Below are positions 13,821 through 55,665 of a stretch of 64,000 nt of DNA, piece after piece. The DNA is from Octopus vulgaris (Eukaryota): assembly GCA_951406725.2 (NCBI GenBank), contig OX597815.1, positions 40,548,001-40,612,000 on the forward strand. The letters are read 5' to 3'. The notes below the pieces were generated by a model. It was not told where the DNA came from, ran no database searches, and saw only the letters and a program-made list of their open reading frames with translations. Both the position numbers and the translations under genes were made by a program. Position 1 is the stretch's first letter. The number at the start of each line of letters is the position of its first letter.

Positions 13821-13959
13821 TTTAATTTTATATGCATTTGTAAAATTGTGCCTGAAAAATTTTAAATGGCTTCTAAAGTTGCTATAAGAGAAAAAAAATT
13901 TATCGATGAAATTCTGGATACGACCACTTGTCTTTCTCTTTCCACATATATACACACAA

Positions 13960-14525: not shown

Positions 14526-15184
14526 AACTGTCCGATGAACGGGAACGTGAAACTGAGTAACAGTTCTTGTGATATTTTTGCTGCTTTTTAATAAAGCATA
14601 TTACTCTATCTCTCGTATTTGAGTACTATTTTTTTCCACCTTGTTTTGCATTTATGTGCTTACTCTTGTGTGTATATATATATATACATACACACACACG
14701 CACATATTCCATTAGCTAAATTTAATGTCTATAAAGTCAGAGTTTTATACAAAAGTATTTTTAAAATTAAGAAACTATAAGAATAAAATGCCAGTCTTAC
14801 ATCAACAATTTGATTAATAGGGAGAGAGCATATTCTATCTATATTATCTGATGTGCCTAAGATTACATTATCTAATGTGTATCATATTTTAAAATAGCAG
14901 GGATAACAGCAAGTTGGACACATTGTAAAACATGGGTGAGTTCTATTTATAAGGCGCCATGCATGTCAATTTATTTGCAAATGTAATTTCATATATTCTA
15001 ACAACTGAGTAATTAAGAATTTAGCTCTCTAAATTAGGGCCATTATCAGCCAATTACCAGACTGTTTCAAGTCAAGATATATATATATATATATATATGT
15101 AGGTCCCGGGTTGATTCGGGGTTAACCACAGTAAATAAGGTACTCAATACATAGCAGAGTAAAATTAATTTATTATATAGAAGG

Positions 15185-15235
15185 AGCTTCTACAGGACTA
15201 GAACTGTTTCATTCAAGAGAAATCTTCAGGAAGCT
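15185..15235 (-). ncRNA. Type I hammerhead ribozyme motif (family A), mirror copy, sense to the CLEC16A pre-mRNA
   Basis: Exact reverse complement of 15232-15282 within the perfect palindrome 15168-15299. Confidence 0.8.
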
Positions 15236-15282
15236 TCCTGAAGATTTCTCTTGAATGAAACAGTTCTAGTCCTGTAGAAGCT
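15232..15282 (+). ncRNA. Type I hammerhead ribozyme motif (family A)
   Basis: Stem I AGCTTC/GAAGCT; core CTGAAGA (15238-15244); stem II tTTC-TCTT-GAAt; GAAA (15257-15260); stem III CAG/CTG around loop TTCTAGTC; cleavage triplet GUA, cut after 15276. Confidence 0.8.
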
Positions 15283-15297
15283 CCTTCTATATAATAA

Positions 15298-15331
<34 letters not shown>

Positions 15332-15590
15332 TCATCACCATTTAATGTCCTTTTTCCAAGTTGGCATGGGTTAGATGGTTTGACAGGAGCTGGCCAGCTG
15401 AAGAGTTGTCCAGGCTCCATGTCTGTTTTGGTATGGTTTCTATGGTTGGATGCCCTACCTAATGCCAAGATGCCTGGATTATGGCCAGGCTCATGCACTG
15501 CCTTCAAGGATATAGTAGAACAAATTGCCTCTAGCACTTATTTTACCAGTCTCTTTTTCCAAAACCACTAAGTTATGGGGACAAACACAA

Positions 15591-15627
<37 letters not shown>

Positions 15628-16339
15628 TGAAGAAATAAGATTTTTTTCCCCAAAATTCTGAGAATCTTTTTTCTCAATATTCAATTTCTGTACACCACAC
15701 CTAACACACACACAAGCTTCTTTCGCTCTTTGTCAAGCAAATCCACTCACAAGGCTTTGGTTGAACTGGAGTTGTAATAGAAGACACTTGCCCAAGGTGT
15801 CACACAGTGGGACTGTGTGCTTGGAAAAAGCTTCTTACCACACAGCCATGCCTACACACAGAGCCATAATAATAAAAACAGCTAGATAGAAAAAAGCAAT
15901 GAAAACAAAACGAAAAATACAACCAAATATAAAGACACAAATTTGACTACTGTTGAAAATTCATTGTTATACCTTATTAGGATTCAGTATTTTGGTTGGT
16001 TTTTTAATCTTTCTTTCCAGCTATTTTACATGCTATCATCATCGTTTAGTGTCTGCTTTCCATACTGGTATGGTTAGACAGTTTGACTGGAACTGGTAAG
16101 CCGGAGAGCTGTACCAGGTTCCAGTCTGATTTTGACTTGTTTTCTACAGCTGGATGCACTCCCTAACACCAGCCACTCCAAGAGTGTAGTGGGTGCCTTG
16201 TATGTGTCACTGGCATATATGCCAGTTATGTGCCACTGGCACAGGTTCCAGTTACGTATCACAAGCATGGGTTCTTTATGTGTCATTGGCATGGGTGCTT
16301 TTACATGTCATCAGCCACAACTATGATTTCACTTGGCTT

Positions 16340-16800
16340 GATAACTCTTCTCAAGCACATTAAATCACCAATGGTCACAAACATTTATCACCTCTGTGAG
16401 ACCTATCATTTGAAGATTATACTTCACCACCTCGTTCAATGTCTTCTTGGGTCTATTTCTTCCACAGGTTGCCTCCAATGTTAGAGATCAACACTTTTCG
16501 CAGCTGTCTTCGTTCACACACAGCCATGCTACATGGCAGTGAAACATGGACTGTGACTATACTAGTGCAGTTGCCTCTCTTGCACACCATATCTGATGTC
16601 TTTTATGTCCAATTTTTCTCTCAAGATGCTTACATTGTTGTACATGCACACTAATGTTGCACATCCAGCAAAGCATACTCATACTGTGATCATTTCCTTC
16701 AAGCCTTCACGTCCTCTGCAGTCACAGCCCCTGTTTCACTGCCATGTAGCATGGCTGTTCGCATACAGGTATCATACAATCTGCCTTGGAAAGGGTTTTC
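16340..16800 (-). mobile_element. Decayed RTE LINE fragment
   Basis: QGRLYDTCMRTAMLHGSETGAVTAEDV, an RTE ORF2 thumb motif. Confidence 0.75.
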
Positions 16801-18850
16801 AAAATTTTGGACATTTGCATAGTTATTGAGTTTGATTGTTTTTCTTTTGAAGCAGATATTATTCCTAACTGAGATTAACATCAAGTGTGGAACCTGAAGT
16901 TCAATGGTGTGACAGAGGCAAGCCCAACAGGCATACAAAATGAAACTAAAGTTAGAATCGATAATGATTTGAACATTAGTTCTAGCATCTGTCTCTATAT
17001 TCCATTTGACTATCATTATCTACTTGGATCCATCATGCCAGTTAAAATCAGATCGTCTCTGGGTATAAATTAGTGCAACTGTTCATTTAATGTGTAGAGT
17101 CTTTAAAACTGATTTGGGTGATGCCAAATGAGTAGTTGCACGAGTATGAAATTTTGTTTTACCTTTTACTATAGCATTGGGTCAACCAAAGTATTATGAG
17201 TGAAAGTAGCCAGATAAAAAAAAATATGTATAAGCCCAACATACTGTACATATTCTTAAGTGGTAGACTTAATCCATTACATGATTCAACTTTTAGCATT
17301 TAGATTATTTGTCGAATGTAATACTTTTTCATTTACATTATTTTTAATTAATCATGCATTATCTCATAGCTTTGAAATTCTAATAATATGATTGTATATT
17401 TTTAGAATGACATTGGAGAGCAGGTGTGATAGGCCGGATCTGGCTGATTAGAACATAAGACAGATAGCATATTGAGGGCCAGATATGTCCAGTTTAAATG
17501 CTAAAGGGTCAAACACTACCAATTGGCACTTAACTTAAGCAGCATCTACTCTACTGCAAGTGTGCAAAACAGATCTACAGTCTGAGATTAATTTTTCCTT
17601 TTCCTTCCCCAGCAGTTTCTTGCCCTGCAAAAGGTCGTGAGTGCTACCTTCCTTTCTCTGACATTTCTATAAGGGTAACCTTCCAAGAGATCAGAAAACT
17701 GGTGTATGGATATCTATAAACAAATAGGTATAAAGTATATTATATTACTTAAAATAAGTAATCTCATCAAACCAAGTTAGTTTTAAATGGTACTAAAATT
17801 ATCTTTTTAGCATAAACTTCAAAATATTAATTCCATTAACTTATTATTGATTATTTTTTTAAAATCAATATTTGATATCAGGGCAGCAAGCTGGCAGAAT
17901 CGTTAGCACACCAGGCGAAATTCTTAACAGTATTTCGTCTGCTGTTATGTTCTGAGTTCAAATTCCACCAATGTTGACTTTGCCTGTCATCCTTTCAGGT
18001 TCAATTAAATAAGTACCAGTTATGCCCTGGGGTCGATGTAATCGACAATTCTTTTGTCTGTCCTTGTTTGTCCTCTCTGTTTAGCATCTTGTGGGCAATA
18101 AAGAAATAAATATTTATTGATATCTGTGTGTGTGTGTGTGCACGCATGCAGAGCCACACACACACACAAATTTAGAGCTATGCACATCATTTTGTGCAAG
18201 ACAAACATGAAATAATTAAGTTGTATTTGTATGACAAATTATTCAATCTGAGATTGTTAGTTGGGACTAAAACAACTTCATCTGGTTTCATGTCATTGTA
18301 GCTATGTAAGATAGTAAAGAATAAAGTAAAAGTGAATAAAACTATTTCTAATAGCAACAAACAAATGATTAAGTGGTATGTAAACCAAAAGATAACTATA
18401 AATTAAATGTAAAATAATTTAAAAGATTAATGATAAAACAGCCCAACTCTACTGATCAACAGGAACATTTTTAACATTCTCAACTGAGTTTACCAAATGA
18501 TTATATGTTATATATATATATTAAAATATATGTGTACTGCAAGAAATGCGCTATGATGATGATAATGCTGAGATGTGTCTTAAAAAGAGGGTGTAAACAA
18601 GTACATAACTAAATGTACGATTTAATATCTGTAGATCAGGATATAACACTTCATAGAGAAAAGGAATGATACACACACACACACACACACACAGATATCA
18701 GGAAAAAGTGAACCATGAAGAATTTGTACCAGTTTTTGCAGAGTTCAGAGTTTTTTTAAACATTTTTTTGCAATTGTCTGATAATACAGACAGACTTGCC
18801 CAAATACATCAATAAATTAACATTGATATTTTTTTCACCGTTGTTACAGT

Positions 18851-19191
18851 CAAAGCGTGATATTCTGCCAATTTTGCTACTCAACTTCAAAAAAGGATGT
18901 AAAGCAGCTGAAACTGCTCGCAATATCATCACAACATTTGGTGAGGAAATGACTAGTGAGTGGTTAACTCGAAAATGGTTTAAATGATTTCACAGTGGAG
19001 ACCTGAGCCTTGAAGATCGTGAGCATAATGGATGCCCGTCTGTCATCAATGACAGTCAACTAAAGACCGTCACTGAGAAAAGTCCACATAAAACCACTCG
19101 AGAACTGGCAAAAGAAATTCATGTTAGCCACAAAACTGCCTGCAACTATTTGCATGTGATTGGAAATTCAAAAAAGCTTGACAAATGGGTA
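18851..19191 (+). mobile_element. Mariner transposase N-terminal remnant
   Basis: FKKGCKAAETARNIITTFGEE...RKWFK*FHSGDLSLED...TTRELAKE...KKLDKWV: mariner HTH and linker with a stop. Confidence 0.85.
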
Positions 19192-19560
19192 GTGTGGAAA
19201 TTAAGGCTGACACGGTTGACTTTACAAGTCTAAACAATCAATGCTCTGAATGTTTTCTGTCAAGGGTTTCTAAGAACAATCATGTGACTATTCTTTATCA
19301 CTCAAATCCTATTCAAAACATATACTAATTTGAGCCATGAACTCCCTATAAAAACAGGGTAAACTTCAAACACTAGCCAGAAGCAAGACAGCTGCAATGT
19401 AAACCATGTCTTTCTATTTGAACCTTTTTTAAAAAATCAGTGTTAACTGTGAAACCAGTTAAAGCTTCAAATATTTTAATAAAAATTATTTTAACTATTC
19501 TCAGTGCACTTACAACTTCTATTTTTCTTATATTTCTACCAGTGTGGAATAAAATATCTT

Positions 19561-19605
<45 letters not shown>

Positions 19606-19635
19606 TATATTAGGCATATACATACAAATATTTAT

Positions 19636-19940
19636 GGAGAAGTTCTTAAGCAGATCAGCCAGAAAATGTCACTTGAAGCTAGGATCACCAAGCATAGATT
19701 GGCATATTTCGGTCATATTATGCAGAGAAAATCCCTGGAGAAGGACATCATGCTTGGAATGGTCAGTGGCAAGAGAGGAAGAGGCCGACCAAGAACCTGC
19801 TGGCTTGACACCATCAAGAGTGATACCGGAATGGACAAAGCCAATTTGAAAGAAGCGGCCCAGGATAGAACTGACTGGAGGACACTGATCCAACGAGTAA
19901 CCGAGAGTCAACTCCGACTGAGCGGATAGATAGATATTAT
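19636..19940 (+). mobile_element. 3' end of an RTE-clade LINE (5'-truncated)
   Basis: RLAYFGHIMQRKSLEKDIMLGMVSGKRGRGRPRTCWLD...WRTLIQRVTESQLRLSG* followed by a short (ATAG) tail. Confidence 0.88.
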
Positions 19941-22900
19941 ATATATACATACAAATATTTATACATTCTTATACACAAATATACATATCTATTTATACAT
20001 TACTTTTTCCAATAACTTGATTGTGCTACATTGATAAATCAATTTATGTAGAAGAAAAATATAGGTGATGACATAAATAACAGCCTAGCAATGGTTAATA
20101 AAAAAACAAAATAGAAACCCACCAACTATAGCATGAAAATCCAACAGATCACTCTTTTAATCTTTAATATGACACCTTAAAGGAAAGTAAAACAGTCCAA
20201 TAAAACGGAACATTGCATTATTTTTACAATGTCGATTTATAGCTGATGAGAGAAATTAATCATAATATGAAAGCTGTACCATTGTACCCTCCTAAATGTC
20301 CTCCCTTGTGACAGTTTCGTGCAGGTCTTCAAAACTGCTATAGATTGCTTAGCATCACAAAAACTGATGATTTTACATCCATAATATAGCAAAAATTATG
20401 TTCTAAATACTGACTTACTCTCCAGAGTCAGAAAATATTTCAATCCCAAAACAGCTGGTGACTCTTAAAATTCAAATGAAATCTACAATGGAATGTTGTT
20501 CTCAACCTCTATTTCTATACACACACACAGATCTTCAACTGCATTCAATGTAAAGCTATTTAGCTTAATGACAAAGACTTATTCACCAACACATTTCAAC
20601 ATCAAGCCCACAGATATCTTCCTACTATTTGTAACAACTTTAATAATCTCTGCTCTTCAGAGGTATCTCACTGCCTCCACATAAGCCCACCCATCTGTCT
20701 ATTGTGCATCACTTGTATTGTGGTTTACTATTCAAGCCCCACACTAACCCCTATTGCCAATCCTTTCTTATTAAAACATCAATCCTCTAGAATTCCTTTC
20801 CTATCCATATTTTTCCTGCAGACATCAACTTTCAACATCTCAAATTGATCATTTGCATAAATCTGAACAGCCTTAGAAGACTTACAAAGGATGTGTACAT
20901 AACCTCTCTTTCTCTCATTTTTTTTTAATTATATGAGAAAATGATATAGCCTTCTATTTATGTCATATTGTCTGACATACAGCATGCTTGACATTAACCA
21001 TCGCTAGAGTGACTTGCTTAAAATCCAAATATTTGGGGGCCGATTCATTTTTAAGCTACAGGGAAAACCACAAGGAATCATCTACTCTGAGTTATGACTT
21101 TTTAGATTCAATCTCACAAACATGTTTTACTCTTTTTATATCTATATAGTTTAACAGCTTTGAAACAATTTTGTATTTAGTTGCAGCAAAACTGAGCAAC
21201 AAAAATATTAAATGAAAGCAAATTGAGTTAGAGTGAATTTGTAAAAGAGAATACAGAGATAATAGGAAATGCATAGTTAATATGAAGAGAATAAGTTCAA
21301 GCATATTTAAAGCATAATTAAATTTAAAAATCAAGAATAAGCATAAAACCAAAGATGTACTGATGAAATGGCATAAAGTAATTGTGGAGTTTATTAAGCC
21401 ATACAAATATAAGACATTTAACCATTTCAATACCAACCCACCTGAGTGCCTCTGGTTACATATGAAATAGTGTTCCTATTTAAATCAAAACAGTCCATCA
21501 TAATTTTACGCAAGAAAACATATATTCCAAACCTCAGCTTCTTAATGAAAGAGCTATTTTACTACATGCTCCCAAATTCTTATCTACTTACTTAGGCCCT
21601 TTGCTTCCAATTGAGCATAGGCCATTGATGAATTTTCTCCACTGATCTTCACTCTAGGTTGTCTACAAAACAATCCTCATTTTATTTGTTATAAATGTTC
21701 AAATGTCAGTATTTCAGACAATTGCAAGACTATTCCAATTTTAAATCCTGAAAACTGATGCCTTCCCTATTAAGCAGTCATCATAAAAGATAAAATTTTC
21801 TGCAACAAATAATGGCAAAATAAAATATTTAAGATACTAATCTAGAAAATACTTTATTTCTACACTATACATTATCATCATTTAACATCTGTTTTTCATG
21901 GGTTGGGTGGTTTAACAGGAGCTGACCAACTGAAGGGCTGTTTGGGCTCCGTCTGTTTTGGCATGGTTTCTATGGTTAGATTCCCTTCCTTATGCCAACC
22001 ACTTTACGGAGTGTACTGGGTGCTTTTATGCAGCACCAGTATGGGTGCTTTTTATGTTGCACCAGCACCTACAAGTCTGCAAGATTAGGGATGCCGAGCT
22101 ATAGAGGATTGCAGGAGTTGAGCCTGTATACAAGGACAATCACTTAGCATGATGGATCTTTTCAAACACAGCAAACTGCCAGCGGGGACACAATTTTTCA
22201 AATAGTTAAATTCTGTTTAACTTAGTTGCTTAAATTTTTATCAAGAGATGATTAAATCAGTTGAACTTTGAAAATTAGAAATAATATAACTCATTCTAGA
22301 ATGTACTGACTTTGTTTATAGTTTTATATAATACGAAATGTATATCCAGTAAAAGTTAACAGTATATATATATATATATATATATATATCATCAACAACT
22401 AGGCATTGACATATTAAGAAACTGTCAACAGAAACAATAAAGAAAAAAATTATATCTGCTCAACTGTTTTAAAAATGGTGTGTGTGTGTATGTATTCACT
22501 CTTGTTTTATGACTATCTTTCCATGCAAGCACGAGTTACATGAACATGCTGCAGAGGCATTGTTTTACAACTGGATACCCTTCCTGTCACTAACCCATAG
22601 CTATTTTTCAAGTAAGCGATGTTTTACCTTACATGTCTTTGGTGGGACAAAGCTAGCAGATAACTTGTTGAGAAGAGAAATTATACAATCACCACTTGTA
22701 GCTTGTGATATTCAGAGACATGCAAATAGAAACACACACACACATTCTTTCAGTTTCTGTTTACCACATTCACTCTCAAGGTATAGTAAAAGATACATGC
22801 CCAAGATGCTGTGCTATAGGTTTGAATCTGAAACCTAGTGTTTGGTAAGCAAACTCCTTAAGAACAGCTATGTCTGTATCTACCTGTGTGTGTGTGTGTA

Positions 22901-29079: not shown

Positions 29080-29080
29080 T

Positions 29081-29120
<40 letters not shown>

Positions 29121-31532: not shown

Positions 31533-31565
<33 letters not shown>

Positions 31566-38871: not shown

Positions 38872-38940
38872 TTGATCATTTTAAATGAGATCATTAAATT
38901 GATGATTTTAAATGAGACCATTAAATTGATCGTTTTAAAT
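38872..38940. repeat. 27-bp minisatellite, about 2.5 copies
   Basis: TTGATCATTTTAAATGAGATCATTAAA unit repeated. Confidence 0.85.
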
Positions 38941-40010: not shown

Positions 40011-41328
40011 CACATTCTTTTAAACCCAATTAATCTATACTTTTCTTCTAAAATAACAGATATTTGATTCAAAGTTAATTTTTTGCCTTACTCTCCTATT
40101 TTTGACCTCACATATTTTGACCTAACTTTTTTTTTTAATGAACTAAATTTCAACTATTTTATCTCAAAATGTATCTTGGTAGAGGACCATCAATGCTAAA
40201 AAAAACACACACATCCAATTTGGTTGAGGACTAAGTGATGAAGCCTAGAAGTGCTTACAAGTAACTAAAAGTTGACCTTAATATATTCACCCACTGCCAT
40301 GGATGAATGATTCAAAGAATGCAATATGATAATCTAAATCTGTTGTATTTTCTTCACTGCCCTGTCTGTTCATGTATGCCTTTAGATTCTGGTGTTGGCC
40401 AGAGCAAAGTGGATTTGGTAGGTGCATGATAGTTTCTGTTTCTCTAAACTTAACACATTCCAGTACTATGTCCGGAGTTGATGAGGTTATAGATGTTGTT
40501 ACCATTCATGAGTGAATGTAATTTATATTTGTATAGACTAAGCGGGAGCTGCAGTAGTGTCTGGATGCTTGAACAAGTAATGGGGATTGTCTGTCAGAAC
40601 TTACTGTAGTAACAGCCCACACTCCTCAAATATGCAGATGTTTCTGAAAAACCTTATTGAAAAATGTAATTCCTAATAGTTCAACAAAATATTAGATGCC
40701 TGTTTTCATATTACTACTCTATTTTGTCAGTGGAAAAATTCTGACAGGATCAAAATTTCAACTTGCTTCTTTATACCTTTTTCCTTCCTCAATTTTTTTC
40801 ATTAACATCAAAGTTTTATGGTGTTTTCTCACACTTCTTTTAACTCAAGGTGTCTGATATCAATATATTTTTTCTCATCACACACAATTTTTTTTTTACA
40901 CAGAATTATTATACTTACTGCTATGCACCACTGGATACCATGTAAAAATTGTTTCATAAATGTAACTGATTACACAACACAATTTTCTTGTATGCAAACA
41001 ATGGTTAATGACATTATTCCTGAAATTTAGTTTTGCTTTGTTACTAATATGTGGTTTTATATGAAAGTAATTACCAGAAGTGAAAGTGCATGACCTTAGT
41101 GGCTAGGAGGTTGCACTCATGATCATAATTTTGATTCCTGGACCAGGCAGTATTACATTGTGTTCTAGAGTAAAACACTTCATTTCACAATACTCCTGTC
41201 CACTCAGCTGTAAATGAGTCCCAGCAATAGTTGAGAAGGTAACCTTGTGACAGACCAGCGTCCCATTCAGTGGAGAGGGAGGGGAGTGTTGTAATCTCAG
41301 TCACATATAGGCAGACCTAACCTAAATT

Positions 41329-43242
41329 ATATAGAGTCAAGGTGACCAATCAGATGTGGTATTACTAGCTCCTGTATCACAAGCTTGTATTTCACAATGG
41401 GTGTAGTTTCTCTGAGGAAAATCAACTACTTGTTTCATTTATTCTATCACAAATATCTTTTCCTGGAAAGGTATTATTACATCAATATAACATTTCAAAA
41501 GCCAGTCTCATGGACTGGTTTTAATTAACTATTATGACTGCTGAAAGGAATGACATCCCTGTAAGAACTCAAACCTAAACCCAACAGCTAATTATTTCAA
41601 AGAAAATAACCAAATATATTGCTTTATTTTACAAATGGTGTTCAAACAGCTTCAATAAAAATATAAATACATGGAAAACAAGCAATATTAAAAAAAAAAA
41701 GAATTTTCAATAAACATAAAAATATAAAAGTAGCAATAAACAATACAATAATTTTTAATTGTAATACATGTTTTAAATGGCACATTTTAGCAGACAAAAT
41801 TCTTTTTATTGAAAAAGAACTGGTGATAAAAAAAATTACTTTATTTACAGCTACTTCACGGTTGTCCTGAAACTGTTGTTGTTTGGTACCAGTCAGTGTG
41901 ATTTCAGCAAACCTTTTTGCATGGAAGTAACCAGTCAACTTTTTTTTTTTTAAACCCAAAATCTTGTTCACTTTGCCTGCTATGCTTAAATTATGTTAAT
42001 TTGGTTTAAAATGCATTCCTTTTTTCAATAAAGCATAGTAAGGAAAGATGCATAGGAGCCTTGCCTAGAAAATGATCAATATGAAGAAAATCTATACTAC
42101 TAATCTCTTCAAACAACTCAAGAGAAAATTCATGGAGATAATTTAGACAGTCCTCATTTACAGGTTTAGCTCCAGCTCAATCCTGGCTGAAGAGACTTTT
42201 GATCAAAAGCATTCCAACCATGACCATCCAATCTGTTTATGGGTATGTAGGATTACATTATCTGTCTGTTTATCTGAGAAGTTCACTTTGCAGTCATTCT
42301 ATCTCACAGTATGACATCAAAAAAATTTCTTTACCACAGTCTCATGTCAAACCAAACCTAGCAAGTGAAATTAAGTAAACAGAAACTGAGTAGAAACTGG
42401 CAAAGTGGACTGTATCTGTAATTCAAAGGTTTGGCTTTGCAACATTGCATCATGCTGATTCTACATGAATTAAAGAAATTCATAGATCTGTGTAATACTC
42501 AACCACTTTGCTTGTTAATTCACTGAGTATGTCATTAAACTAACTGAACAACTTTTAAATATTTTTATATGTCAAAAACCTCAAAATGCCATCTAATAGT
42601 CATGATAACCTAGTCTCCAATGAAACAAAAGTATAATCCCTATACATTTCAAATAAAGTCTTCCTCTGTATTCTCCCTAAATGCGAGCAACATTCCACTT
42701 TCAAAAACATTACAAATACTTGAGCCTAACTATCTGCAATTTCTTATATATCAATACCCTCCTATCTCTTAAAGCCAAAACATTCCTCAGAGCTGATAAG
42801 CTGCTGACCCACTACAAAACTAAAGTGCGATCTACCTACCAGGACAAACACAAACATCTTCTGCATCTGAAAAAAAGATTGACAGACTTGTACACATAAC
42901 CACTAACTCATTGACACATTTTTTTTTCTCTTATCTTTTAATAACTACTACTATGATGTATGCTTCTCTGAACTTGATGCATTCCCCTCTCCTTGTTGTC
43001 ATGATCCTACCCAAGCCTTTCACTTAATAGAAAGACTTGTTTAATCCCAGGTTAAATTCTAGCTTTGATTATTCCAGCTTTTCTTTTTCTGTTGTTTGGT
43101 ACCAGTCAGTATGGTTATTTGTGATAGAATAAATGAAGCAAGTAGTTGATTTTCCTCAGAGAAACTACACCCATTGTGAAATACAAGCTTGTGATACAGG
43201 AGCTAGTAATACCACATCTGATTGGTCACCTTGACTCTATAT
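41329..43242. repeat. 127-bp inverted repeat pair (41329-41455 / 43116-43242)
   Basis: Reverse-complement match with one mismatch across a spacer of about 1.66 kb. Confidence 0.93.
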
Positions 43243-45363
43243 GTCTAAGATTACATTATCTAATGTACTATTTTTGTACATTATTGTACTATTATTTAAG
43301 GAAATTTGATTATTTCTTGTAGGTTAAGCAACCACCTAAGGACTCCTTTTGTGGCTTGTTCAAACAGATGTTTTACTACAAGATGTCAATCTACAGAAAG
43401 TGAAGCTGAAACTCCACTACATCAACCTCACCAGTCTGGGACAGTCTAAAGTGGATAGGTACTGCCTCTTTGAGTAATAAAAAATATGTATATCATCACT
43501 ATCAACATAATTTTTATTTGCCTTCAAAGCTAACACAGGCTGAATGCATTGCCTCAGTCCACGTTGGTTCTTATTCAGAGGTACTGCCATTCTTGTTGAG
43601 TTGGAGGACCATGTTAGTGTGTGTGTGTGTACACACACACGGTATTCTGGTGTAATTGGACAAGTTTTTTTGTCTCCTTTTTTTCAGGAACATTTTGATG
43701 TATGAACAGTAACAGTCAATGGCAATAAAGAGAATAAAGATTGAAGTAGTAGCTGAGAAAAAGTTAGCTGAGTTGGGAGGACTAGAAGCTAAATATTGGA
43801 AAAGAGTCGCCTGTATCATGATGATTTGCATCAGATATCAAAATCTCAACATCATGGCTGCTGCTCAATGCTCTGTGAACACTGTAAAGGTTGTCAGACA
43901 TGACATGAACAGCTAACAATTTTCAAATGGTAAAATGATTTCATTCATTCAATGATAAAAATTTTGCTGCATTACAATTACAAATTATCAAGGTAGAGTA
44001 GAGCAAACCAATAGCATTATATTACTGGTACTTATTCTATTTCTCTAATGGTGAGGAGACTCTAGTTTGAGAACTTATGTCCAGGCCAGTCACATAATCC
44101 TTTAGAAATATATAATTTATTACTGTTAATACTTGTACATACAGTGTAAGTGTTATATACTAAAAGCAACATGAAAATATAGTTCCTTTCCCTTCTGTGG
44201 TGAAAGATTGTAAAATACTCAGTTCCCTATCTCAAGTGAAATAAAAGTAAAAGGAGAAACTGGGAACTCATCTTAAATTTCTGTAATAATGTTTTTTAAC
44301 CACATGTCAGCTCCAATCAAATACATATGATGAAAGGCCTTCTGTCTATGACCATTGCATCTTATTTTCAGGTATTGTACATAATACATTATTCACTGTG
44401 CACTTTCCTTAAGATAGTAGTGTGATCTGAGACAGATTTGGCTGCTATTCTGAGCAACATAGTAGAGGCTCCTTCATGACCTATAATAGTATTTACATTT
44501 ATATTTATAATGTAGGCACACAAGGCCACATATGTTATATATTTTGATAGAGGGGTTATTCAATTAAATCAACCCCACTACTTGAATGGTAATTTATTGT
44601 ATCAATTCTGGAATAATGAAAGGAAAAAATTGACCAAGCAGAATGAGACTGAAACAGAACTAAGTACCACAAAGAATGGTGTCCAGCTCAATATTGATTC
44701 TGCCATTAATAATTATAATAATTTTTCATACTGGAATAAGCTAATTTAAAAGGGAGGAGGATAATGTCAATTGAATCTACTGCAATACAAATCTGGCTAG
44801 ATTTGAATGAGGACCTAACTGGGGCACAGAAACAAAATTCCCTTCTTGCACAGTTTTTCCTGCAGGTATCAACCTGCAAAAATTTAATCCTTTCTATATC
44901 AATCCACTCAAGACAGCCTTCAATCCCATGATACAAAACCATTTGTTTTAAAATGTTTGTATGTAACTCTTTAGCATTCAAATTATTCTGTCAAATGTAA
45001 TGCTTATTTATTCACATTGTTTTGAATTAATCATGCATTGTCTCATAGCCTTGAGACTTTGATAATGTGGTCATAGGATAGGTGTGAGAGGCAGGATATG
45101 TCTGATTTGAACATAAAACATACATGCAAAAGGGTTAAATCTTTTTTTTCAGTTCTGTTCCAAACACCAAATTAATAATGAACAAGTTATGTTATAAATT
45201 TCTCTAAATTCTTCATTTTTAAAAAAATTAATTGAGATACAGTCAATTTCATTGCCAGATTTTATAATAAATATGGTAACAAAAGGCTAAAATGGAACAT
45301 GAATCACATTAATGTCAATGGTCATGAAGGACCTGAAAATACCATAGACAGAGCCCCTGCCTC

Positions 45364-45745
45364 AAGTGGCTGTGTGGTAAGTAGCTTGCTTACCAACCAC
45401 ATGGTTCTGGGTTCAGTCCCACTGTGTGGCACCTTGGACAAGTGTCTTCTACTATAGCCTCGGGCCGACCAAAGCCTTGTGAGTGGATTTGGTTGATAGA
45501 AACTGAAAGAAGCCCATCGTATATATATATATATATGTATGTGCGTGTATATGTTTGTGTGTCTATGTTCGTTCCTCCAACATCGCTTGACAACCAATGC
45601 TGGTGTGTTTACGTTCTCATAACTTAGCTGTTCAGCAAGAGTGACTGATAGAATAAGTAATAGGCTTACAAAGAATAAGTCCTGGGGTCGATTTGCTCGA
45701 CTAAAAGCTGCAGTCAAATGACTGAAACAAGTAAAAGAGTAAAAG
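45364..45745 (+). mobile_element. tRNA-derived CORE-type SINE (octopus OR-like); many copies, e.g. ~8215-8583(-), ~52748-53131(-), ~53172-53330(-), ~54640-54995(-), ~60575-60735(+), ~62040-62356(-)
   Basis: A box GTGGCTGTGTGGTAAG, B box GGTTCAGTCC, CORE-like GGCACCTTGG(G/A)CAAGT, internal TA/TG microsatellite and a GTAAAAGA tail. Confidence 0.82.
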
Positions 45746-46808
45746 TGAGTAATAAGAGGATTTATACAATAATTGATTTCTCATACATTTTCTTAGTCAA
45801 CCAATTTATAGAAGAGAGAAGATAAAATATTTATACCCTTCTCAAGAGTGTCAAAAACAATAATAAACTTTTATGGTTAAATCTTATAACAATCCTTGAT
45901 AACATTATATGAAAAAGAAGGAATGTTCTGAATTAAATTATATTGCTCCATCAGAAGTGACAAAAAAAATTTATTTGAAAATGAAGAGTATTGATAAAGT
46001 GTCAATAATTTTAATAAAAGTTAAATATATTTTGGTGAGATAGCACACCTCTATTGCAAAACAATCCATTATACCAATTTATGCTACATCAATATGTTTA
46101 GACTAGCAAAAAAGCCTAGCTATGTATGCATGTCCTCCTAGTTCTGCTAAATTTCTCACAAATAGAAAAAGAGCTGGTTTCTAATCCAAAGCTCTTTTGT
46201 TGGAACTTAGACAACATCAACTAGATAGCCATGTATTGTATGCATCTGCACACATGCATGCAAGAATGCTTGTCATTGTGCTGTAACGTATTTGTTACAT
46301 ACAATAAATAAGATAACCAGACAGCAGTAAAAACAATGTAACGAATTATCAAATCTCTTTCTGAACCAACAATCAATATTCCTTGTGAACTAACCAACCG
46401 ACACCTTTCTACTTCACTGCAAACTAACATGTACTTCACTTGACTCCAAACTCTGAACTTATGAACTCACTCGGATCGTTGCTATTTATACTTTACTCAG
46501 ACCAGGCTATCTTTCACAAGGGGGCATCGTAACTCTCATCACAACACACTGCATTATGGATTTGCATATTTTGATTTAACATTTGTGTACATATGTTTGG
46601 GTGTCAACATATGTGCATATGTACCAATACAGACCAAACTTTTGAAACGTTTTACATATATTCACAGACTTGTAATTGGCTTGTAAATGTAAGTTCCTAA
46701 TCATATATCATTTCTGATTTTGTGAAACCCAGCTTCAAGACTAGTACTAAGGCAGTTAGTAAAGTAACCCAATAATTAAAGATATAAATCTAAAGCTATA
46801 GTCTAGAT

Positions 46809-47138
46809 CAGGGGTTCTCAACCATTTTTTTACCTGTGGACCCCTTTGATCCCATTTTTACTTAAGTGGACCCCCATAGTCATTCAATGTTTAGAAAATT
46901 TTATTGTATTTTTATAAATAAATATTACTGGGAATTGTATAAAATTTGCTAAATTATTTTGTGTATTGTGAAGGGATAATCTGCACACAAACTTTACTGG
47001 TCTGAGCACAATTTTTTCATGACTCCTGAAAAATTATTGTAGACCTCCCCCCACCAGTTTACTATATTGCATACATGGACAACCAAAAATTTTATAAGAA
47101 CCCACAGGATCCATATGGACCCCAGTTGAAAACTCCTA
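46809..47138. mobile_element. hAT (Charlie-like) MITE
   Basis: 8-bp TSD GTCTAGAT (46801-46808, 47139-47146); TIRs CAGGGGTTCTCAAC / GTTGAAAACTCCTA. Confidence 0.88.
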
Positions 47139-48499
47139 GTCTAGATGGAGTATCTGTAGGATTTCTTGTTATTTTGGAGGAATAAATGTTTTGTTTTCTA
47201 CTTATCTTTAATATTAACATCTGAAAAATTGATTTCCACTACTGCAAGTTGATGCTGCCAGGAATGCAGCTCACAGAAGATTCAAGATAAACAATGAACA
47301 CGAGGCTCATTGTGAATAGAATGCTATCCAACAGTCAGACAGGCAGTGAATAGATAACTGATAAATGGCAAGCTCACTTTCAACTGGATATTGTCAAAGA
47401 GACAACATGAAAGTCATAAATGCACCAGGCTTGACAAAAAGCTCAAAGAGCAAGACAAAGAATGATTTGATCTTTCAAATGACGAGTGAAAAAAGAAGTG
47501 CCTTCAATTTTGATCTGGATATGACTAAGATTCTGAAAAAATTATTTCAATTGGCATCGTGTCCAGAATTTGTGACCAAGAAATGAAAGCAAGAGATGCT
47601 TGCAATGTGGAGTTCCAATAAAAAAAAGTTACTCAACCAGTCTTTGTTGATTCACCAGTAACCTAAGACAGATTCTTTCTCTTACTTCCAAGACATTTCT
47701 TGCAGAACTGATAGTTATGCTTCCTAAATAACTTTCTTCGGAGCTAGCCACATCAGAAGAGGACATTAGATTAAAATAACTATCTATGTATCATACATAA
47801 TGTGAATACACCACTGAAAGGCAAATTTACTGTGATATTTGTATGGAGATATCTCTGCATTTAAAAACACAGCATGTCAGCAGGAGATAAAAATCATCCC
47901 AGCAGTGGCTTGAGACTGCCAAAAGCATTTCTGCTTTGTTGGATGTTGTCAATAAGCAGATGCTTAGATGAAATTTATCTCTATTCATATATAGGAAAAC
48001 ACTGTATAAGCATTCACTGGTGTTGTGAATAGACACCCAACTAAATAAGAATGTGTTATATGTAACAGAAGTTGTATTTGATTAAAACAACCATCTATGT
48101 ATCGTATTTAATGTAAATACATTAAGTACGACTGGAACAAAGCTGACTGGACTCCTATTGTACTGAGTTACAGTACCAAAACTGGCTTACATTTTAGGAT
48201 TCCAGAACTGTTAATACTAGCCTTCAGTGTAACTTTAGTTCAATTTGGGCTATTTGCTGAGCATCAGTACCATATATACATGTTAGAAACCTTAAAAGTG
48301 TAATTGGAAGACTGCAGCAATCTGCTTTGCAAGGAAAGAACAAAAGGACACTGAATGTAAATACAGATTACTTAGAACAAAGGATAATAGAAGGCAAAAC
48401 AGAGTGTGTAGCCATATCAAGGAGGTGACTAAAAAGCAGTAATTAAATTTGAACAATGCATAACAATCATCAACCCAGATAGTAAAGTGTTTTGGAAAT

Positions 48500-49620
48500 A
48501 TGAGCATTTGAAACAGGCCTCATTCACCAGTCAGCCCTCTTCACAATCTCCATACAGGTCAGATTACTAATCATCACAAAGAGTACACAAAACTTATTGC
48601 TGAATGCTATGCTGGCATTTTTACTGTGGAAAATCCAAATGTACCCTCTTCACTGCTACTGACACCAAATTTCATAATACCTGTTGAAATAAATCCTACA
48701 ATGTTGTGATGCCACTTCAAGTATATAAACAACTATGCTTCCCCTGGTCTTGAAGATGTTACTTAACTGTTTCTTAGACATGACAGGCTCTTTTTATTGC
48801 ATTAACTTTTGCCCTGCTTTCAATTTTGTTACTCCAGAACAGTGGAAAACTCAGCATTATTCCTTTGTTCAGAAAGGGCAACCACGCATCACATGTCAAT
48901 TATGGTCCAGGTTACACTAGCTATATCACCAAATTGATGGAATCCTGCAATAATGAGACTTCTGAAACTTTTGGGACTCTCATAACCTTATTCAACTCTC
49001 ACAATTTGCCTTTATCCCTAACTTCAGCTGCTGTAGCTAACTCATCAAATTCCTTGAAGACATCATCCAAAACTCCAAAACCTTTAATTCTGAACCACAA
49101 AAATGACTTATTGTGAAGATCTCTGCAATAGGCATGATGGTTAATCTTTGTAACTTGTTGAAGTCCTTCATTCCTGGCCAAAAGGTGAGAGTCACAGTAC
49201 TAGGACAACATTCTGCATCCTATGTGATAACATCTGTTGACTTACAGTAATATATTTTTGCTCTCTTGTTGTTTATTGCATATATTAATAAAATAGATGC
49301 CAACTTGAAGCATGTTAATGTATTAAAATACATAAAAGACATTAAGCTCTACCTTGAGATGAAAAAAAAAAAATCAAAATTTATGTTACAGATCTGTTCT
49401 GTAATCTGAGCAGGAGACAATGCAGCAATAAACTGTAGGCTGACAACACAAGCTGTCTGCAGATAATTGAACCACTGTACATTTTGGAAGGAAAGACTTG
49501 GAATTTACCTTCTCCCACCACAACACCAATCTTAAGAAGTCTGCTGGTGAATGTGACTAAGGCAATATTGTCAACAATGACCTGCAATGGCTGAATCACA
49601 TTTCTAAAATTGTCAAAAAA
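48500..49620 (+). mobile_element. Highly decayed CR1-type LINE reverse transcriptase
   Basis: PEQWKT, IIPLFRKGNHASHVNYGP and LLFIAYINKID...LKYIKDIKLY remnants. May extend left to about 47200. Confidence 0.7.
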
Positions 49621-49789
49621 GTCAAAGATATCTCAGCATCTGTCAGCAAGACCTTTGTCAACCACTCACTGGCTATGTATTTAAAGCCATATATGGTTAT
49701 GTCTCACCCTAGGGTAATACTAATTTAAGGGTTTCTGGAAGTTTTGTTGTACAGATACATACAATTTATATACACATACACTCATACAC

Positions 49790-50600
49790 AATGTAGCTTG
49801 TCTCATAATGATGGGACACACAAATTTGGCTATATATTAATAAACTAGCTTAAAAGTCACCCTATTGGGCTGCTTTTAAGCTAGCTCCTGTATAGGGCTC
49901 TTCATTGGGCCTTGGGCCCAACAATGACACTTCATGCATTAAATACATATTAAATTTTATTAAACTTGACCAATATTCTTCAAGCAATGCACAATTTTCA
50001 TCAAAACAATGATATAATTTGTCGACTTGGAACTTACTGCAAAACTGCATGATAAACATATTTTAACTTCCCATTCAGGGGTTAGTACAATTTTTTTTTT
50101 CTGTCTAACCTCTTTCTTTCTCACTCTCTTTCTGTTGATTATTTTCAACCATCACCATCACCAGTACCACCACCATCACCAGTACCACCACCATCACTAC
50201 CACAACTGCCATACACACAGCATTCAGACTTCTGATGCCACCACCTTTGACTTTGCCGCCTTCCCCTCCACCACCATCATCATCACTTACTATCACCATT
50301 GTTCCTGACTGCTTCAGCTACCACCACCACCATCACCTCCTAATCACAACTACAGCTATTACTATTACTATCACCCAATTACCATCACAATTGTCAATCT
50401 ACTACCATCTCTATGCCTACTATTACTCTTAGCCCAACATGAGCAATTGTAGGAGTGTCAATGAATGGTGAGAGAGGGGGTTCAAAGTGTGACACACTGA
50501 CACACAAATTAGTTTTTGCATTTATTATATTATATGTACTTCTTTCAGTCCTAGCTACTTGCATTTAAAATGTGTCCCATCATTATGAGACACCACAAAT
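49790..50600. mobile_element. Tc1-like non-autonomous element containing a (CAC/CAT)n low-complexity tract
   Basis: TIR core GTCTCATAATGATGGGACACA (49800-49820) / TGTGTCCCATCATTATGAGAC (50571-50591). Confidence 0.7.
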
Positions 50601-51369
50601 AAATAAATATATACATCCCTTTCGCATTCAGATTATTTTGCTAAATATAATGGTTATTCATTTACATTACTTTGAATGAACCACAATTATCTTCAAGATT
50701 TTGATGAAAGTGATCATTTATTTTTAGAATGACATTGTAGGGTAGGGGTGAGAGTTTGGATCTTGCCAGTTTAAATATAAAACAGAATATTTGTGCTGGA
50801 TACAGCCGTTTTAAATGATAAAGGGTGTATATATATCCAACAAGCTAGAGGGCTGTGTTGATTTCCAATGTTTGTTTTGCCATAGTTTCTACAGCTGAAT
50901 GTCCTTCTTAATGCTAACCACTTTACAGAATGTAAAGGCTGCTTTTTGCATGGAACCAGTACTAGTGAGGTCACCAAGTAATTCGCAAGACCATGAAAAA
51001 GACCCCTTGACTGTGTAGGGTTATAGTAGAATAGGAGTTCGCTTTATGCTAGGTGTTGAGGGGGTAAAGTATAGTACAGAGACAGACATAAGTATCTCAC
51101 TACAGAGAAGACACATAGCCACCCAACATTGTATAAGAATAGAAGTAGCTGAAAAGAAAACAACAATGGTGGTGACAAAATGGCAGAGCATACTTTCAAG
51201 ATGCAAGAAGATGAATATAAGAGAATATGGACAAAGAATTAGGAAAGGTAGGTAATTAAATTATTTACAGTGTGAGAGGAGGGTGACAGATGATTAGAAA
51301 TGAGTGTAAAAATGAATGTAATGAATGGGACATGGATGGGGGTGTGGTCAGGATCTCACTTTCATTAAG

Positions 51370-52710
51370 ACAGAAGGGTCTTCTTGAGCAGATCATATTA
51401 CTAATCATCTTGGTTCTTTGACATCTCCATGAGGCTTAAAATCTTAAGGTCAACCTTCACTACTTCATCCAATGTCTTCCTGGGTCTCCCCCTTTCACAT
51501 TTAGCAATCAGTGCTTCTTTACACAGCTATTCCTATCCAAACATGACCATACCAGTGCAGTCTTCTCTCATGCACACTACATCTGATTCCTTTTAGGCCC
51601 AATTTTTCAGAAGGAACTATATGGAAAATAAAGCAGTAAGGGATGATACTGAGAATGTGGGATAGGTGACAAAGGAAATGATGCCAAGGAATGGGAGAAC
51701 CAGTAGCACACAAGGTTATGAAATATGTACAGTTCTGCTCTTATACAAATACAACAGCTGAGTAAATGGTGTCCTACTTAAAAGAGTGATGGAGGAATGG
51801 CTGTTAGGAAATTGCGGTGGAGGCTTAACAGGGACAAACTGAGTGCAGGAGTAGAGATATAAATGATGTGCTTTTAGGACTTCAGAGTCTTCTCAAGCAC
51901 TGTAGATTGCCAATCATTTTGATCCTTTGTCATCTCCTCCATGAGGCTCAACAACTTGAGGTTGGTTTTTGCTACATCACTGTTTTGTTGGGTCTACCTC
52001 TGCAACAGGTTCCATCCACATTTGCAATCAGCACTTCTTTATGCAATTGTTGCCACTCATATGCATCACATGACCACACTACTGCAGTCTTCTCCCTTGC
52101 ATACTACATTCAATGCCTCTTAGGCTCAATTTTTCTCTCAACATGTTAGCACCTTGTCGTACATGCACACTTATATTGCAAATCCAATGGAACATACAAG
52201 CTTTATTTCTTTCTAGCCTTCATACATCTTCTGCATTCACAGTTCTCATTTCACTATCAACAGGCATTACTGTTTATACACAAGTCTGATGTCACTCTGA
52301 AAGAGAAGCTTTTTGTAACCAACTGAGGTAATAGCTCTCTGAACATTTTCCAGCCAGTTCTAGCAGTCATACTTTCAGAACATCCTCCGTCACTGATACT
52401 TAGTTCACCTATATAACAGAAACTATTTACTATCTGTAAGGATCCTCCTAGGTATTCAAGAAAATCTATTTCCCGTACATTCTTAGTGTTTACTGCACAT
52501 TTGCTACAAACTATACTTTCTCCATTAACTTTCCTATGATTCCACTGCACCTCTTATGTGTCCACAGTTTGCACAGGGTAGACTGCATGGAATTTCTACC
52601 TACACTTCCCTACATAAGGTCATTTTCCTGAAGGGATTAGCATCTTTTCTGTTTTCCTGCTTACTAGAACATTGGTCTTTGTAAACTTTAAGGCCCTTTG
52701 ATTTCACACT
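51370..52710 (-). mobile_element. Decayed RTE LINE fragments
   Basis: IVNSFCYIGE...GGCSESMTARTGWKMFRELLP and ERRLHWYGHV motifs, with many frameshifts. Confidence 0.75.
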
Positions 52711-52941
52711 GGGAATTTCTTTTTTAATTATTTTATCTCTTACCTAATGTTTCAGTCATTTGACTTTGGCCATGCTGGGGCATTACCTTGAAGGATTTTA
52801 ATCAAACAAATTGTCCCCAGGACTTATTCGTTGTAAGCCTAGTACTTATTCTATCGGTCTCTTTTGCCAAACCGCTAAGTAACGGGGACATAAACGTACC
52901 AGCATCGGTTGTCAAGTGATGTTGGGGGGACAAACACAGAT

Positions 52942-52973
<32 letters not shown>

Positions 52974-53563
52974 GACAGGCTTCTTACAGTTTCCGTCTAC
53001 CAAATCCACTCACAAGGCTTTGGTCAGCACGAGGCTATAGTAGAAGACACTTTCCCAAGGTGCCATGCAGTGGGACTGAACCCGGAACCGTGTGGTTGGT
53101 AAGCAAGCTACTTACCACACAGCCACTCCTGCGCATATATATATATATATATACATACAATATATATAAACAGGCTTCTTTCAGTTCCCATCTATCAAAT
53201 CTACCTACAAGGCTTTGGTCAGCCTGAGGATATAGTAGAAGACACTTGCCCAAAGTGCCATGCAGTGGGACTGAACATGGAATCACGTGGTTGGGAGGCA
53301 AGCTTCTTACCACACAGCTATGCCTGCACCTACTGCATATACATCTGTAAGAACATGACCATCAGCATAGGGGAGTTCACACAAGCAACTCGTCTTAAAC
53401 TCTTCTGTTATGGGCTGAAGGACTATGATAAATAGGATGGGACAGAACCTGGCAAACCCCTACGTCCACACTAAATTCATTGTATTCATTGCTAAGTCAC
53501 ATATTATTGACAGTATCTAGTTATATATATTTATAAACATAGATTTATAAATGTGTGTGTGTT

Positions 53564-53780
53564 TATGGGGAGGTGCTGAAAAGTTCCTGACTTTGGATAA
53601 AAGAAAACACAGGAGGATCAGTTAATGATTTTATTCAACACATTCTCCTCTCAGATTCACACACTTATTGCAGCAGTCCTTCAGTTTTTCTAAGCCCTGT
53701 AAAAGAACCTGAATTTTGGGCCTCCAGCTAGGTCTTTCACAACACCTTTGAAGCCAGGAACTTGTCAGCACCCTTTCGTA
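53564..53780. mobile_element. Mariner-type MITE
   Basis: Imperfect TIRs GGTGCTGAAAAGTTCCTGACTT / AAGCCAGGAACTTGTCAGCACC with TA ends. Confidence 0.75.
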
Positions 53781-53788
53781 TATGTTTA

Positions 53789-53819
<31 letters not shown>

Positions 53820-53999
53820 ATATTAGGGAATAAATCCAAATTTACAGGGAAAATCAGATTTAGGATTGAATCCAATTTTATAGTAAAATATTATATAATA
53901 TTAATTAGAGACAAAACCACTATTTTGCAAATCAAACAAAGAAAGACTTAATCCAATACATAAAACAATTTTAATATAAATTAAATAAAATTATATTAG

Positions 54000-54045
54000 C
54001 CACTACAATTGTTTCATGTCTCTTCTCAGGACATTCATCAGGTGG
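54000..54045 (-). ncRNA. Minimal type I hammerhead ribozyme motif (family B), mirror copy, sense to the CLEC16A pre-mRNA
   Basis: Exact reverse complement of 54105-54150 within the palindrome 53892-54258. Confidence 0.88.
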
Positions 54046-54104
54046 ATTTCAGGTCTTCTATTCTATTTTAAGTTTAACTTAAAATAGAATAGAAGACCTG
54101 AAAT

Positions 54105-54150
54105 CCACCTGATGAATGTCCTGAGAAGAGACATGAAACAATTGTAGTGG
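54105..54150 (+). ncRNA. Minimal type I hammerhead ribozyme motif (family B, Penelope-like)
   Basis: Stem I CCAC/GTGG; core CTGATGA (54109-54115); stem II ATGTC/GACAT; GAAA (54135-54138); minimal stem III with palindromic CAATTG; triplet GUA, cut after 54146. Confidence 0.88.
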
Positions 54151-54245
54151 CTAATATAATTTTATTTAATTTATATTAAAATTGTTTTATGTATTGGATT
54201 AAGTCTTTCTTTGTTTGATTTGCAAAATAGTGGTTTTGTCTCTAA

Positions 54246-54295
<50 letters not shown>

Positions 54296-54299
<4 letters not shown>

Positions 54300-54614
54300 T
54301 CTATAATTATGAGTATAATTATAATTAGGGTTCAGCAAAATTTGCTTCACCACATACCGAAATTTAGAAATAGCAGTTAAACTACTATAAGATATCTCCC
54401 AATTGCTGTCTGGAAGATATCTTATGGTAGTTTAACTGCTATTTCTAAATTTCGGTATGTGGTGAAGCAAATTTTGCTGAACCCTAAATATAATTATACA
54501 ATTATACTCATAATTATAGAATTTTTGTATAAGTTTACCAATAACAGTTCTTTTAACATACCAAACTACTTGGTAAAATTATTAATTAATTAATTTTACC
54601 CTTTATTATTATTG
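54296..54614. mobile_element. Fold-back insert in (TA)n without a canonical hammerhead
   Basis: Roughly 100-bp inverted arms (54296-54397 / 54415-54524), a right extension ending TTATTATTATTG, and (TA)n flanks. Confidence 0.6.
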
Positions 54615-54834
54615 ATATATATATATATACACACACACTTTTTATCTTTTACTTGTTTCAGTTATTTGACTGCGGTCGTGAAGGGGTACATTGCCTTGAA
54701 AGGTTTTAGTCGAACAAATCGACCCCAAGGCTTGTACTTATTCTATCGGTCTTTTTGGCCGAACCTCTAAGTCATTGGGACGTAAACACACCAACACTGA
54801 TTGTCAAATGGTGGTGTTGGCCAAACAAACGCAC

Positions 54835-54888
<54 letters not shown>

Positions 54889-55264
54889 CATATAACTGAT
54901 AATCTTTCAGTTTCCATCTACCAAATTCACTCATAAGTATTTGGTTAGCCCGAGGCTATAGTAGAAGACACTTTCCCAAGGTGTCATGCAGTGGTACTAT
55001 ATATATATAACACTTTAGATAACAGAGAGAGAGCATCCAGCCATAGAAAATCTACCTCAACAAATTCCGTTTGTACTATGCAAGAAAGGAAAAGCGGACA
55101 TTATATATATATATATATGGCATTCTTTTGATATAGATATCTTATCTATCTATATCGAAAGAATGCCACAATTATATATAGGCTAACACGTATGTATACA
55201 TATACACAAACACTTATATGATGATGTAAGTGTATAACTGCGCGCGTGTATGTGTGTGTATACA

Positions 55265-55298
<34 letters not shown>

Positions 55299-55665
55299 CA
55301 TACATATACATACACACATATATACATATGAGAGGGATGACCACTATGTGGACAACCCTTATGCTAGAAGTAGAGATCCGCTATGGTCCACTAAGAAATG
55401 TTCTCTTGAGAACATATCTTAATGGTAAGACCATAGCGGATCTACTCTCATATGTAATACAATTTTCTGAACCTTCAAATTTTGATATGCCAGACCACTT
55501 CTTTTAAATTGATGTTAATCAAATATCCAATCCCCCCCCTCATTTTAAATATATATATATATATATATATTGTACAGCATAACCATAACTGAGTGTGTAA
55601 GCATATTATATATATAATACACTTACACACAGACACACACAAAAGTACTTTTACGATTATGCTGT

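Follow-up and report, generated by a model that had tools for sequence, protein, structure and literature searches.

Inverted, one-tailed ends of Penelope-like elements in (TA)n microsatellites of Octopus vulgaris and their probable origin from two primings on one sense RNA

The 64,000-nucleotide (nt) stretch of Octopus vulgaris DNA analysed here (the window; C2:40548001-40612000) contains five short palindromic inserts. Judged from their sequences, four of them are short ends of ribozyme-bearing repeats, and two were traced to full Penelope-like elements (PLEs). The best explanation, to which we assign a probability of about 0.68, is that inserts 1 and 2 derive from two PLEs of the Hydra clade, as their ribozyme-bearing 5' leaders, that inserts 3 and 5 are truncated ends of two more hammerhead families, and that each arose in one event, with the two strands of a (TA)n target both priming on one and the same sense RNA. 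As part of this explanation, the double hammerhead would be a by-product of the insertion reaction. It draws on family identity, linkage to open reading frames (ORFs), the rule of one tail per pair, concordance of alleles and of splicing between arms, exact intron loss and a pile-up of arms at one start site.

Palindromic inserts of the window and their parent elements

All five palindromes reported in a preliminary description of this sequence were found again at the same positions, and its remark that they lack mutual similarity was borne out by blastn, which gave no insert-to-insert match. Five non-simple arm pairs with arms of at least 22 nt were present in the window and none in each of eight order-4 Markov sequences. 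The arms of insert 1 (66 nt, 100% identical) have no spacer and meet at the axis 15233/15234. Those of insert 2 (183 nt, 100% identical) are separated by 1 nt (54075), those of insert 3 measure 85-89 nt (97% identical), and those of insert 4 measure 22 nt with a 7-nt spacer; insert 5 (55323-55550) has a shorter arm pair with an internal deletion. The (TA)n setting and the one-armed tail described earlier apply to inserts 1, 2, 3 and 5, which are flanked on both sides by (TA)n-type sequence and carry one tail each, whereas insert 4 is tailless and has clean (TA)n on one side only. Just two other exact 20-nt matches to insert 4 were found in the genome, neither of them in (TA)n, and no family was shown for it. 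An assembly chimera is an unlikely source of the palindromes, because the same layout occurs at more than 100 loci, each with different junctions. The features are as follows.

15099..15167, minus strand: tail of insert 1, about 68 nt, family 1; in full elements (L139, L134) it continues toward the ORF start
15168..15235, minus strand: left, tailed arm of insert 1, the family-1 5' leader (Hydra clade), with a hammerhead motif at about 15185-15235
15232..15299, plus strand: right, short arm of insert 1, with a hammerhead motif at 15232-15282
15238-15244 (CTGAAGA) and 15257-15260 (GAAA): core of the right-arm hammerhead of insert 1; cut predicted after 15276 from sequence and folds
15232-15235: AGCT, the 4-nt overlap of the arms of insert 1 and likely RNA 5' end, from counts of the preceding base
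53806..53891, minus strand: tail of insert 2, about 86 nt, family 2; in L406 and L412 the ORF comes next
53892..54074, minus strand: left, tailed arm of insert 2, spliced form, with the exon junction at 54054/54055 and a hammerhead at about 54000-54045
54076..54258, plus strand: right, short arm of insert 2, spliced form, with the exon junction after 54095
54105-54150, plus strand: minimal type I hammerhead of the right arm of insert 2, with a palindromic CAATTG stem III/loop
54296..54401, minus strand: left, short arm of insert 3, family 3; the family hammerhead lies upstream of the copied part
54402..54614, plus strand: right arm and tail (about 54524-54614) of insert 3, nested within the (TA)n that ends insert 2
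55118..55168, no strand: insert 4, tailless, with 22-nt arms and a 7-nt spacer
55323..55403, minus strand: left, short arm of insert 5, family 5; longer copies have a hammerhead motif upstream
55405..55550, plus strand: right arm of insert 5, with an internal deletion and a tail (about 55452-55550), from family-5 copies

Copies of family 1, to which insert 1 belongs, were gathered from the 2.8 Gb genome by exact sequence patterns, which gave 1738 exact copies of the 33-nt hammerhead core and 1977 of a one-base allele. In two loci (L134, L139) the pseudo-long terminal repeat (pLTR) with its tail is followed by an ORF, which in L139 encodes 713 amino acids (aa) and starts 46 nt after them. The whole unit measures about 4.8 kb and begins with an inverted short arm, followed by a partial tandem, then the ORF and lastly a pLTR with tail. 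The spacers of minus/plus pairs in family 1 form a continuum between 0 and about 10 kb, and the long pairs enclose the 3' untranslated region (UTR) and reverse transcriptase (RT)/GIY-YIG fragments. Of 7992 candidates scored against the family-1 protein, 1117 were homologues, with identities of mostly 38-43% for the best of them; the homologues bear PF26215 and, in a few cases, PF01541 or PF00078. The direct Pfam scan of two ORF fragments returned no RT or endonuclease family and one sub-threshold unrelated match, and a PDB sequence search gave no match.

Other observations concern the surroundings of family 1. Partial tandems in L134 and L284 have a start-site copy joined straight behind a truncated ORF, as expected if copying had jumped from the RNA 5' end to another template. 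Nested PLE-type insertions lie in the family-1 3' UTR (L124:6500-8560 and L124:4410-4620): one from an additional hammerhead family, with its short and tailed arms inverted, and one from a diverged relative of family 3. At 15059-15292 of the window, the summed contig depth of family 1 is about 60-140x lower in run X6 than in the other three of runs X4-X7, while neighbouring repeats differ only 2-4 fold across these runs; depth is a poor measure, and the deficit may reflect a recent, population-specific burst.

The DNA search with insert 2 scored the best 40 of 1398 candidates. Reading through the tail had not led to an ORF, which was reached through the start-site pattern and a walk along the 3' UTR. 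An open, Hydra-type ORF of 820 aa was found in L408 (C20:41853500-41863400, minus strand); it is 38% identical to family 1 across the RT part and contains a 99-aa insert, 40% of it Asn, between RT and endonuclease. Two loci (L406, L412) have the order pLTR with tail, ORF, 3' UTR and pLTR in a unit of about 5.5 kb, and the ORF-linked pLTRs are 88-96% identical to the reference arm. In six copies the first exon, 27 nt long, is separated from the hammerhead exon by a GT-AG intron of 1062-1144 nt, and this intron has been removed exactly from both arms of insert 2. Contigs of three presumed-RNA runs cover the family-2 end, though such contigs are silent on start, strand and level. A duplicated family-2 fragment also occurs in a LINE remnant at a cluster of C2H2 zinc-finger ORFs (L198 and L199, C28).

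Both families have the features of endonuclease-containing (EN+) PLEs: a single pLTR-linked ORF with PLE-type RT and GIY-YIG domains (GLYRDD; VY..YIG), partial tandems forming pLTRs, an inverted 5'-truncated copy and a one-ended tail. The clade is that named Hydra by Craig et al. 2021 (PMC8557442), as described in the sections that define it, with which both ORFs share the C-terminal GIY-YIG, the DKT, the CxCX5C linker, CxxC and CxH, and the lack of CCHH; the type I hammerhead and insertion into (TA)n are likewise shared. The inverted 5'-truncated copy with a tail at one end already appears in the Fig. 2 legend of that paper, and the inverted, one-tailed layout in (TA)n has been published (PMC8557442, PMC3846280). 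Several traits differ from the clade description. Units of about 4.8 and 5.5 kb exceed the size of less than 3 kb given for the clade, because of long microsatellite-rich 3' UTRs; tails measure 68-100 nt instead of 30-40 nt; the N-terminal RWK reads RWR in family 1 and KWK in family 2; and family 2 has its 1.1-kb intron and Asn-rich insert. Hydra-1_Obim, from the supplement of the same paper, has a different N-terminus and hammerhead from both ORFs in a comparison by eye, without alignment.

The preliminary identification of the inserts as ORF-less PLE termini therefore holds for inserts 1 and 2, which lie in (TA)n, carry type I hammerheads and lead to RT/GIY-YIG ORFs, while inserts 3 and 5 are ends of further hammerhead families. 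For these the best 40 of 2109 (family 3) and the best 40 of 1072 (family 5) candidates were scored, and no linked ORF was found within 1.5-kb flanks. Longer copies of both families have a hammerhead motif upstream of the part present in the window. Family 3 is an ORF-less, head-to-tail monomer of about 570 nt, and in all five copies extending as far as the unit start, tail-end sequence comes before it; as far as its sequence goes, it is the only non-autonomous unit found and is retrozyme-like.

Two of the inserts had been said to contain hammerheads, and type I motifs are indeed present, facing outward, on both arms of inserts 1 and 2, called by eye and folding in insert 1 and by motif scan in insert 2. 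Rfam at its gathering threshold gave no hammerhead match in the inserts. At motif level the type I hammerhead occurs in families 1, 2, 3 and 5; inserts 3 and 5 are cut off below the ribozyme, so that the window copies lack it. Metazoan PLE hammerheads are reported to be inactive as monomers or protein-assisted (PMC4209133, PMC11167929), and a minimal stem III, as in the family-2 motif, is reported to require a dimer (PMC4209133). The solo arm of family 1 is already predicted to prefer another fold (-9.0 kcal/mol, against -7.4 for the hammerhead). A hairpin at 15273-15291, which spans the predicted cut site and stem I, rivals the hammerhead fold even in the solo arm and could possibly be a built-in off state.

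Pairing of arms, splicing and the start site

For the pair tallies, which were made by hand from tables, each insertion was counted once, and same-strand tandems and tail-to-tail neighbours were excluded. At three complex loci of family 1 (L157, L284, L288) the outer ends decided the score, and exceptions (L174, L250, L255, L048, L072) were kept. One tailed and one short arm were found in 70 of 71 family-1 pairs (by outer ends), 46 of 48 family-2 pairs (21/23, then 18/18 short and 7/7 long), 16 of 17 family-3 pairs and 9 of 10 family-5 pairs. Each arm has sequence absent from its partner in at least 6 of the 21 first-counted family-2 pairs (L003, L008, L015, L025, L028, L269) and in three family-1 pairs (L166, L172, L173). 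The tailed arm of six family-2 pairs lacks 5' sequence present in the short arm, and the arms of L015 and L166 do not overlap at all.

The two arms of a pair agree in their alleles, which points to a common source. Among family-1 pairs, 56 of 57 share the allele, and the single mixed pair compares with 28 expected from the two core variants. Arm-versus-arm distances are a weak signal (0.8 versus 2.8 differences in 13 family-1 pairs, 2.1 versus 3.8 in nine family-2 pairs) and agree with a shared template.

The base before AGCTTCC in family 1 was the native T in 856 cases, A in 312, G in 310 and C in 25; the remaining 235 of the 1738 were otherwise. The A class consists mostly of the zero-spacer palindrome on AGCT (76 of its first 100 entries). 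An extra G at a cDNA end is known from LINE-1 work as a trace of copying the cap. In 7 of 30 listed G arms the G could not be derived from the adjacent sequence, as scored by eye. None of the approximately 24 partners of G-start arms reaches upstream of the start site, and start-site arms pair only with arms that start there or further 3'. Conversely, native upstream DNA is present on both arms in all 19 long pairs, compared with 856 of 1503 arms overall. Because start-site arms never pair with upstream-reaching arms and the long pairs are native on both sides, the arms of a pair appear to come from the same pLTR copy. In families 2, 3 and 5 the position of the axis differs from pair to pair; in family 1 one axis recurs, and it lies where arms pile up at the start site, the likely RNA 5' end.

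Splicing at the GT-AG intron was called in 45 of 66 scored family-2 arms, which indicates that the template was sense RNA. The 11 scorable family-2 pairs comprise eight spliced on both arms, three with one unclear arm and no mixed pair. Across 20 family-2 copies, the intron was kept in 12 of 14 with native upstream DNA and in none of six without it (Fisher p = 0.0007). The exact intron loss together with the fixed start point suggests that both halves were likely copied from one mRNA and not by fold-back. The spacers of L010 and L021 are copied from flanking DNA, which fits the repair of two free ends.

Proposed double priming on a single sense RNA, and the alternatives

Under the proposed mechanism, the (TA)n target would be nicked in both strands, and each strand would start cDNA synthesis from the same sense RNA, one where the tail ends and its partner at an AT-rich "short" site 70-100 nt upstream, and each cDNA would extend toward the RNA 5' end. 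Primed in the leader, the cDNAs would run off the likely capped start after just 70-280 nt, and head-to-head joining of the free 3' ends through microhomology would leave a one-tailed palindrome without an ORF. Priming in the downstream pLTR of a read-through transcript would produce the long inverted insertions with 3' UTR and ORF. Here the capping, the use of a single RNA molecule, the order of priming and the end-joining pathway are what we infer. In a more specific form, a single protein dimer would prime both strands on one capped sense RNA, at two sites that are fixed; ORF-less palindromes would be the only product of spliced leaders, and priming in the downstream pLTR of unspliced read-through RNA would account for the copies with an ORF. 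This form is put forward tentatively, at slightly below even odds.

Several points weigh against two primings on one RNA. The copies sampled were top matches or exact-pattern matches and not a census. The allele concordance is equally expected with one active source copy per cell. Two of the 14 family-2 copies with native upstream DNA are spliced, so spliced source copies could exist. At 23 of 30 junctions the G may instead reflect microhomology with stem I or the partner arm, and in family 2 it is found in only three of nine arms at the commonest start. Short snap-back repeats at some junctions (L154, L169) indicate that fold-back steps occur. A single axis is common to at least about 120 family-1 palindromes (the first 100 of 312 A-class entries include 38 zero-spacer pairs), which is expected of a mobile palindrome too. 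Finally, Frangieh et al., in the part on start-site use, report no strand difference (PMC11167929), so that the one-tail rule needs a coordination unseen in vitro.

Fold-back priming was the general cause favoured in the preliminary description: one cDNA, or an antisense RNA, loops at its 3' end to serve as its own template, and the resulting hairpin is resolved by the endonuclease at the short site. It accounts simply for identical arms and for the one-tail rule, and the self-complementary AGCT at the family-1 axis and the snap-back repeats speak for it; antisense self-priming was proposed by Arkhipova et al. 2013, where the question was left open (PMC3846280). However, after fold-back of a single cDNA the sequence of one arm has to be contained in the other, and the pairs with mutually exclusive sequence contradict it as the sole route: it cannot yield a short arm reaching further 5' than the tailed arm, or arms without overlap. 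An antisense template, in turn, could not be spliced at the sense intron, yet most scored family-2 arms are spliced. We therefore regard fold-back as unlikely. Slightly less probable still is that two separate RNAs of one active source each prime one strand, with a protein dimer assigning the tail site and the short site. This would fit the allele concordance, the predicted dimer (PMC11167929) and full arm overlap without strand displacement, but one source should then give leader-type and upstream-reaching arms, as well as spliced and unspliced ones, in mixed pairs, and such mixtures never appear among the pairs called.

The remaining alternative is functional: mobile palindromes would be kept since double-stranded RNA silences their ribozymes in introns, with editing as a switch. 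In the predicted folds the hairpin dominates read-through RNA (-109 against -8 kcal/mol for the ribozyme), so that the self-masking suggested earlier is energetically certain there, whereas transcripts from the element's own start would exclude the antisense arm. The many family-1 palindromes on one axis would also fit, and a preprint, in the part concerned with introns, reports that hammerhead repeats are depleted from Xenopus introns (10.64898/2026.07.22.740005). Selection for masking nevertheless lacks support, because exact-match pairs closer than 300 bp hold just 48 of 178 sampled cores and many cores are unmasked, because two inserts show the layout without a ribozyme, and because monomers are reported to be weak or protein-dependent. 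The misfolding of the solo family-1 arm and the minimal stem III of family 2 (PMC4209133) point the same way. Nor do the palindromes behave as the independently mobile unit once envisaged, for which a fixed axis and fixed ends would be expected: the spacer continuum reaches about 10 kb and may hold an ORF, and axes vary in three families. The functional model thus appears very improbable.

Known systems, other repeats of the window and significance

Two priming sites are familiar from other elements. In LINE-1 twin priming, two target strands prime on one RNA and a 5' inversion results; two strands and one RNA are also what is proposed here, but in the present case both sites lie at fixed, internal positions, and overlap of the arms is usual. 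The protein of Poseidon PAc of Anolis nicks and extends both strands in vitro, starting at two internal RNA sites that bound the tail, on an uncleaved template and an AT-rich target (Frangieh et al. 2024, PMC11167929). It belongs to another clade, and the account of its start sites reports no strand-specific site use or pairing rule and gives no counterpart to the cap and splice signatures found here. The Penelope elements of Drosophila virilis and Adineta vaga share the start site inside the pLTR, a short first exon, an intron end near hammerhead helix I, palindromes at inverted junctions and Asn-rich inserts, those of Adineta vaga (PMC3846280) resembling the insert of family 2. The passages on these elements emphasise intron retention and put forward antisense self-priming, whereas the short arms here are mostly spliced (PMC2377424, PMC3846280, PMC4209133). 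Non-LTR retrozymes, as described (PMC7229834; 10.64898/2026.07.22.740005), resemble family 3 in being ORF-less, head-to-tail monomers with a type I hammerhead, but their monomers are typically 150-450 nt, not about 570 nt, and family 3 inserts in the inverted, one-tail layout of PLEs. A literature search, with subscription journals outside its coverage, returned no paper on PLEs that gives statistics of arm pairing or describes spliced arms or an added G.

The window also holds a sixth palindrome, missed in the preliminary description (12081-12323; arms of 121 nt, 98% identical, 1-nt spacer), which lies in non-TA sequence, is single-copy by DNA search and is not a PLE end. Contigs from four other runs break 30 nt inside each of its arms, as expected of a real palindrome, and one crosses the axis. 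Inverted repeats were found at 41318-41455 and 43116-43253 (138 nt, 96% identical, 1660 apart) and within 13150-14045 (85 nt, 92%, 726 apart). Two tandem arrays (14072-14326, period 67, 3.8 copies; 52964-53318, period 195, 1.8 copies) are apparently composed of abundant short interspersed repeats.

The inserts themselves are ordinary for PLEs, and their value lies in the splice, allele and start-site markers. Perfect hairpins would also arise from the palindromes in large numbers within host transcripts. Inverted one-tailed insertions and intron keeping in PLEs are called unresolved in the relevant parts of PMC8557442 and PMC3846280; if true, priming by one dimer on capped RNA would explain both the head-to-head, one-tail layout and the keeping of introns without an antisense template. 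This genome offers thousands of young copies that bear the three natural markers, which discriminate the published antisense self-priming from two primings on sense mRNA and yield exact predictions for the in vitro system.

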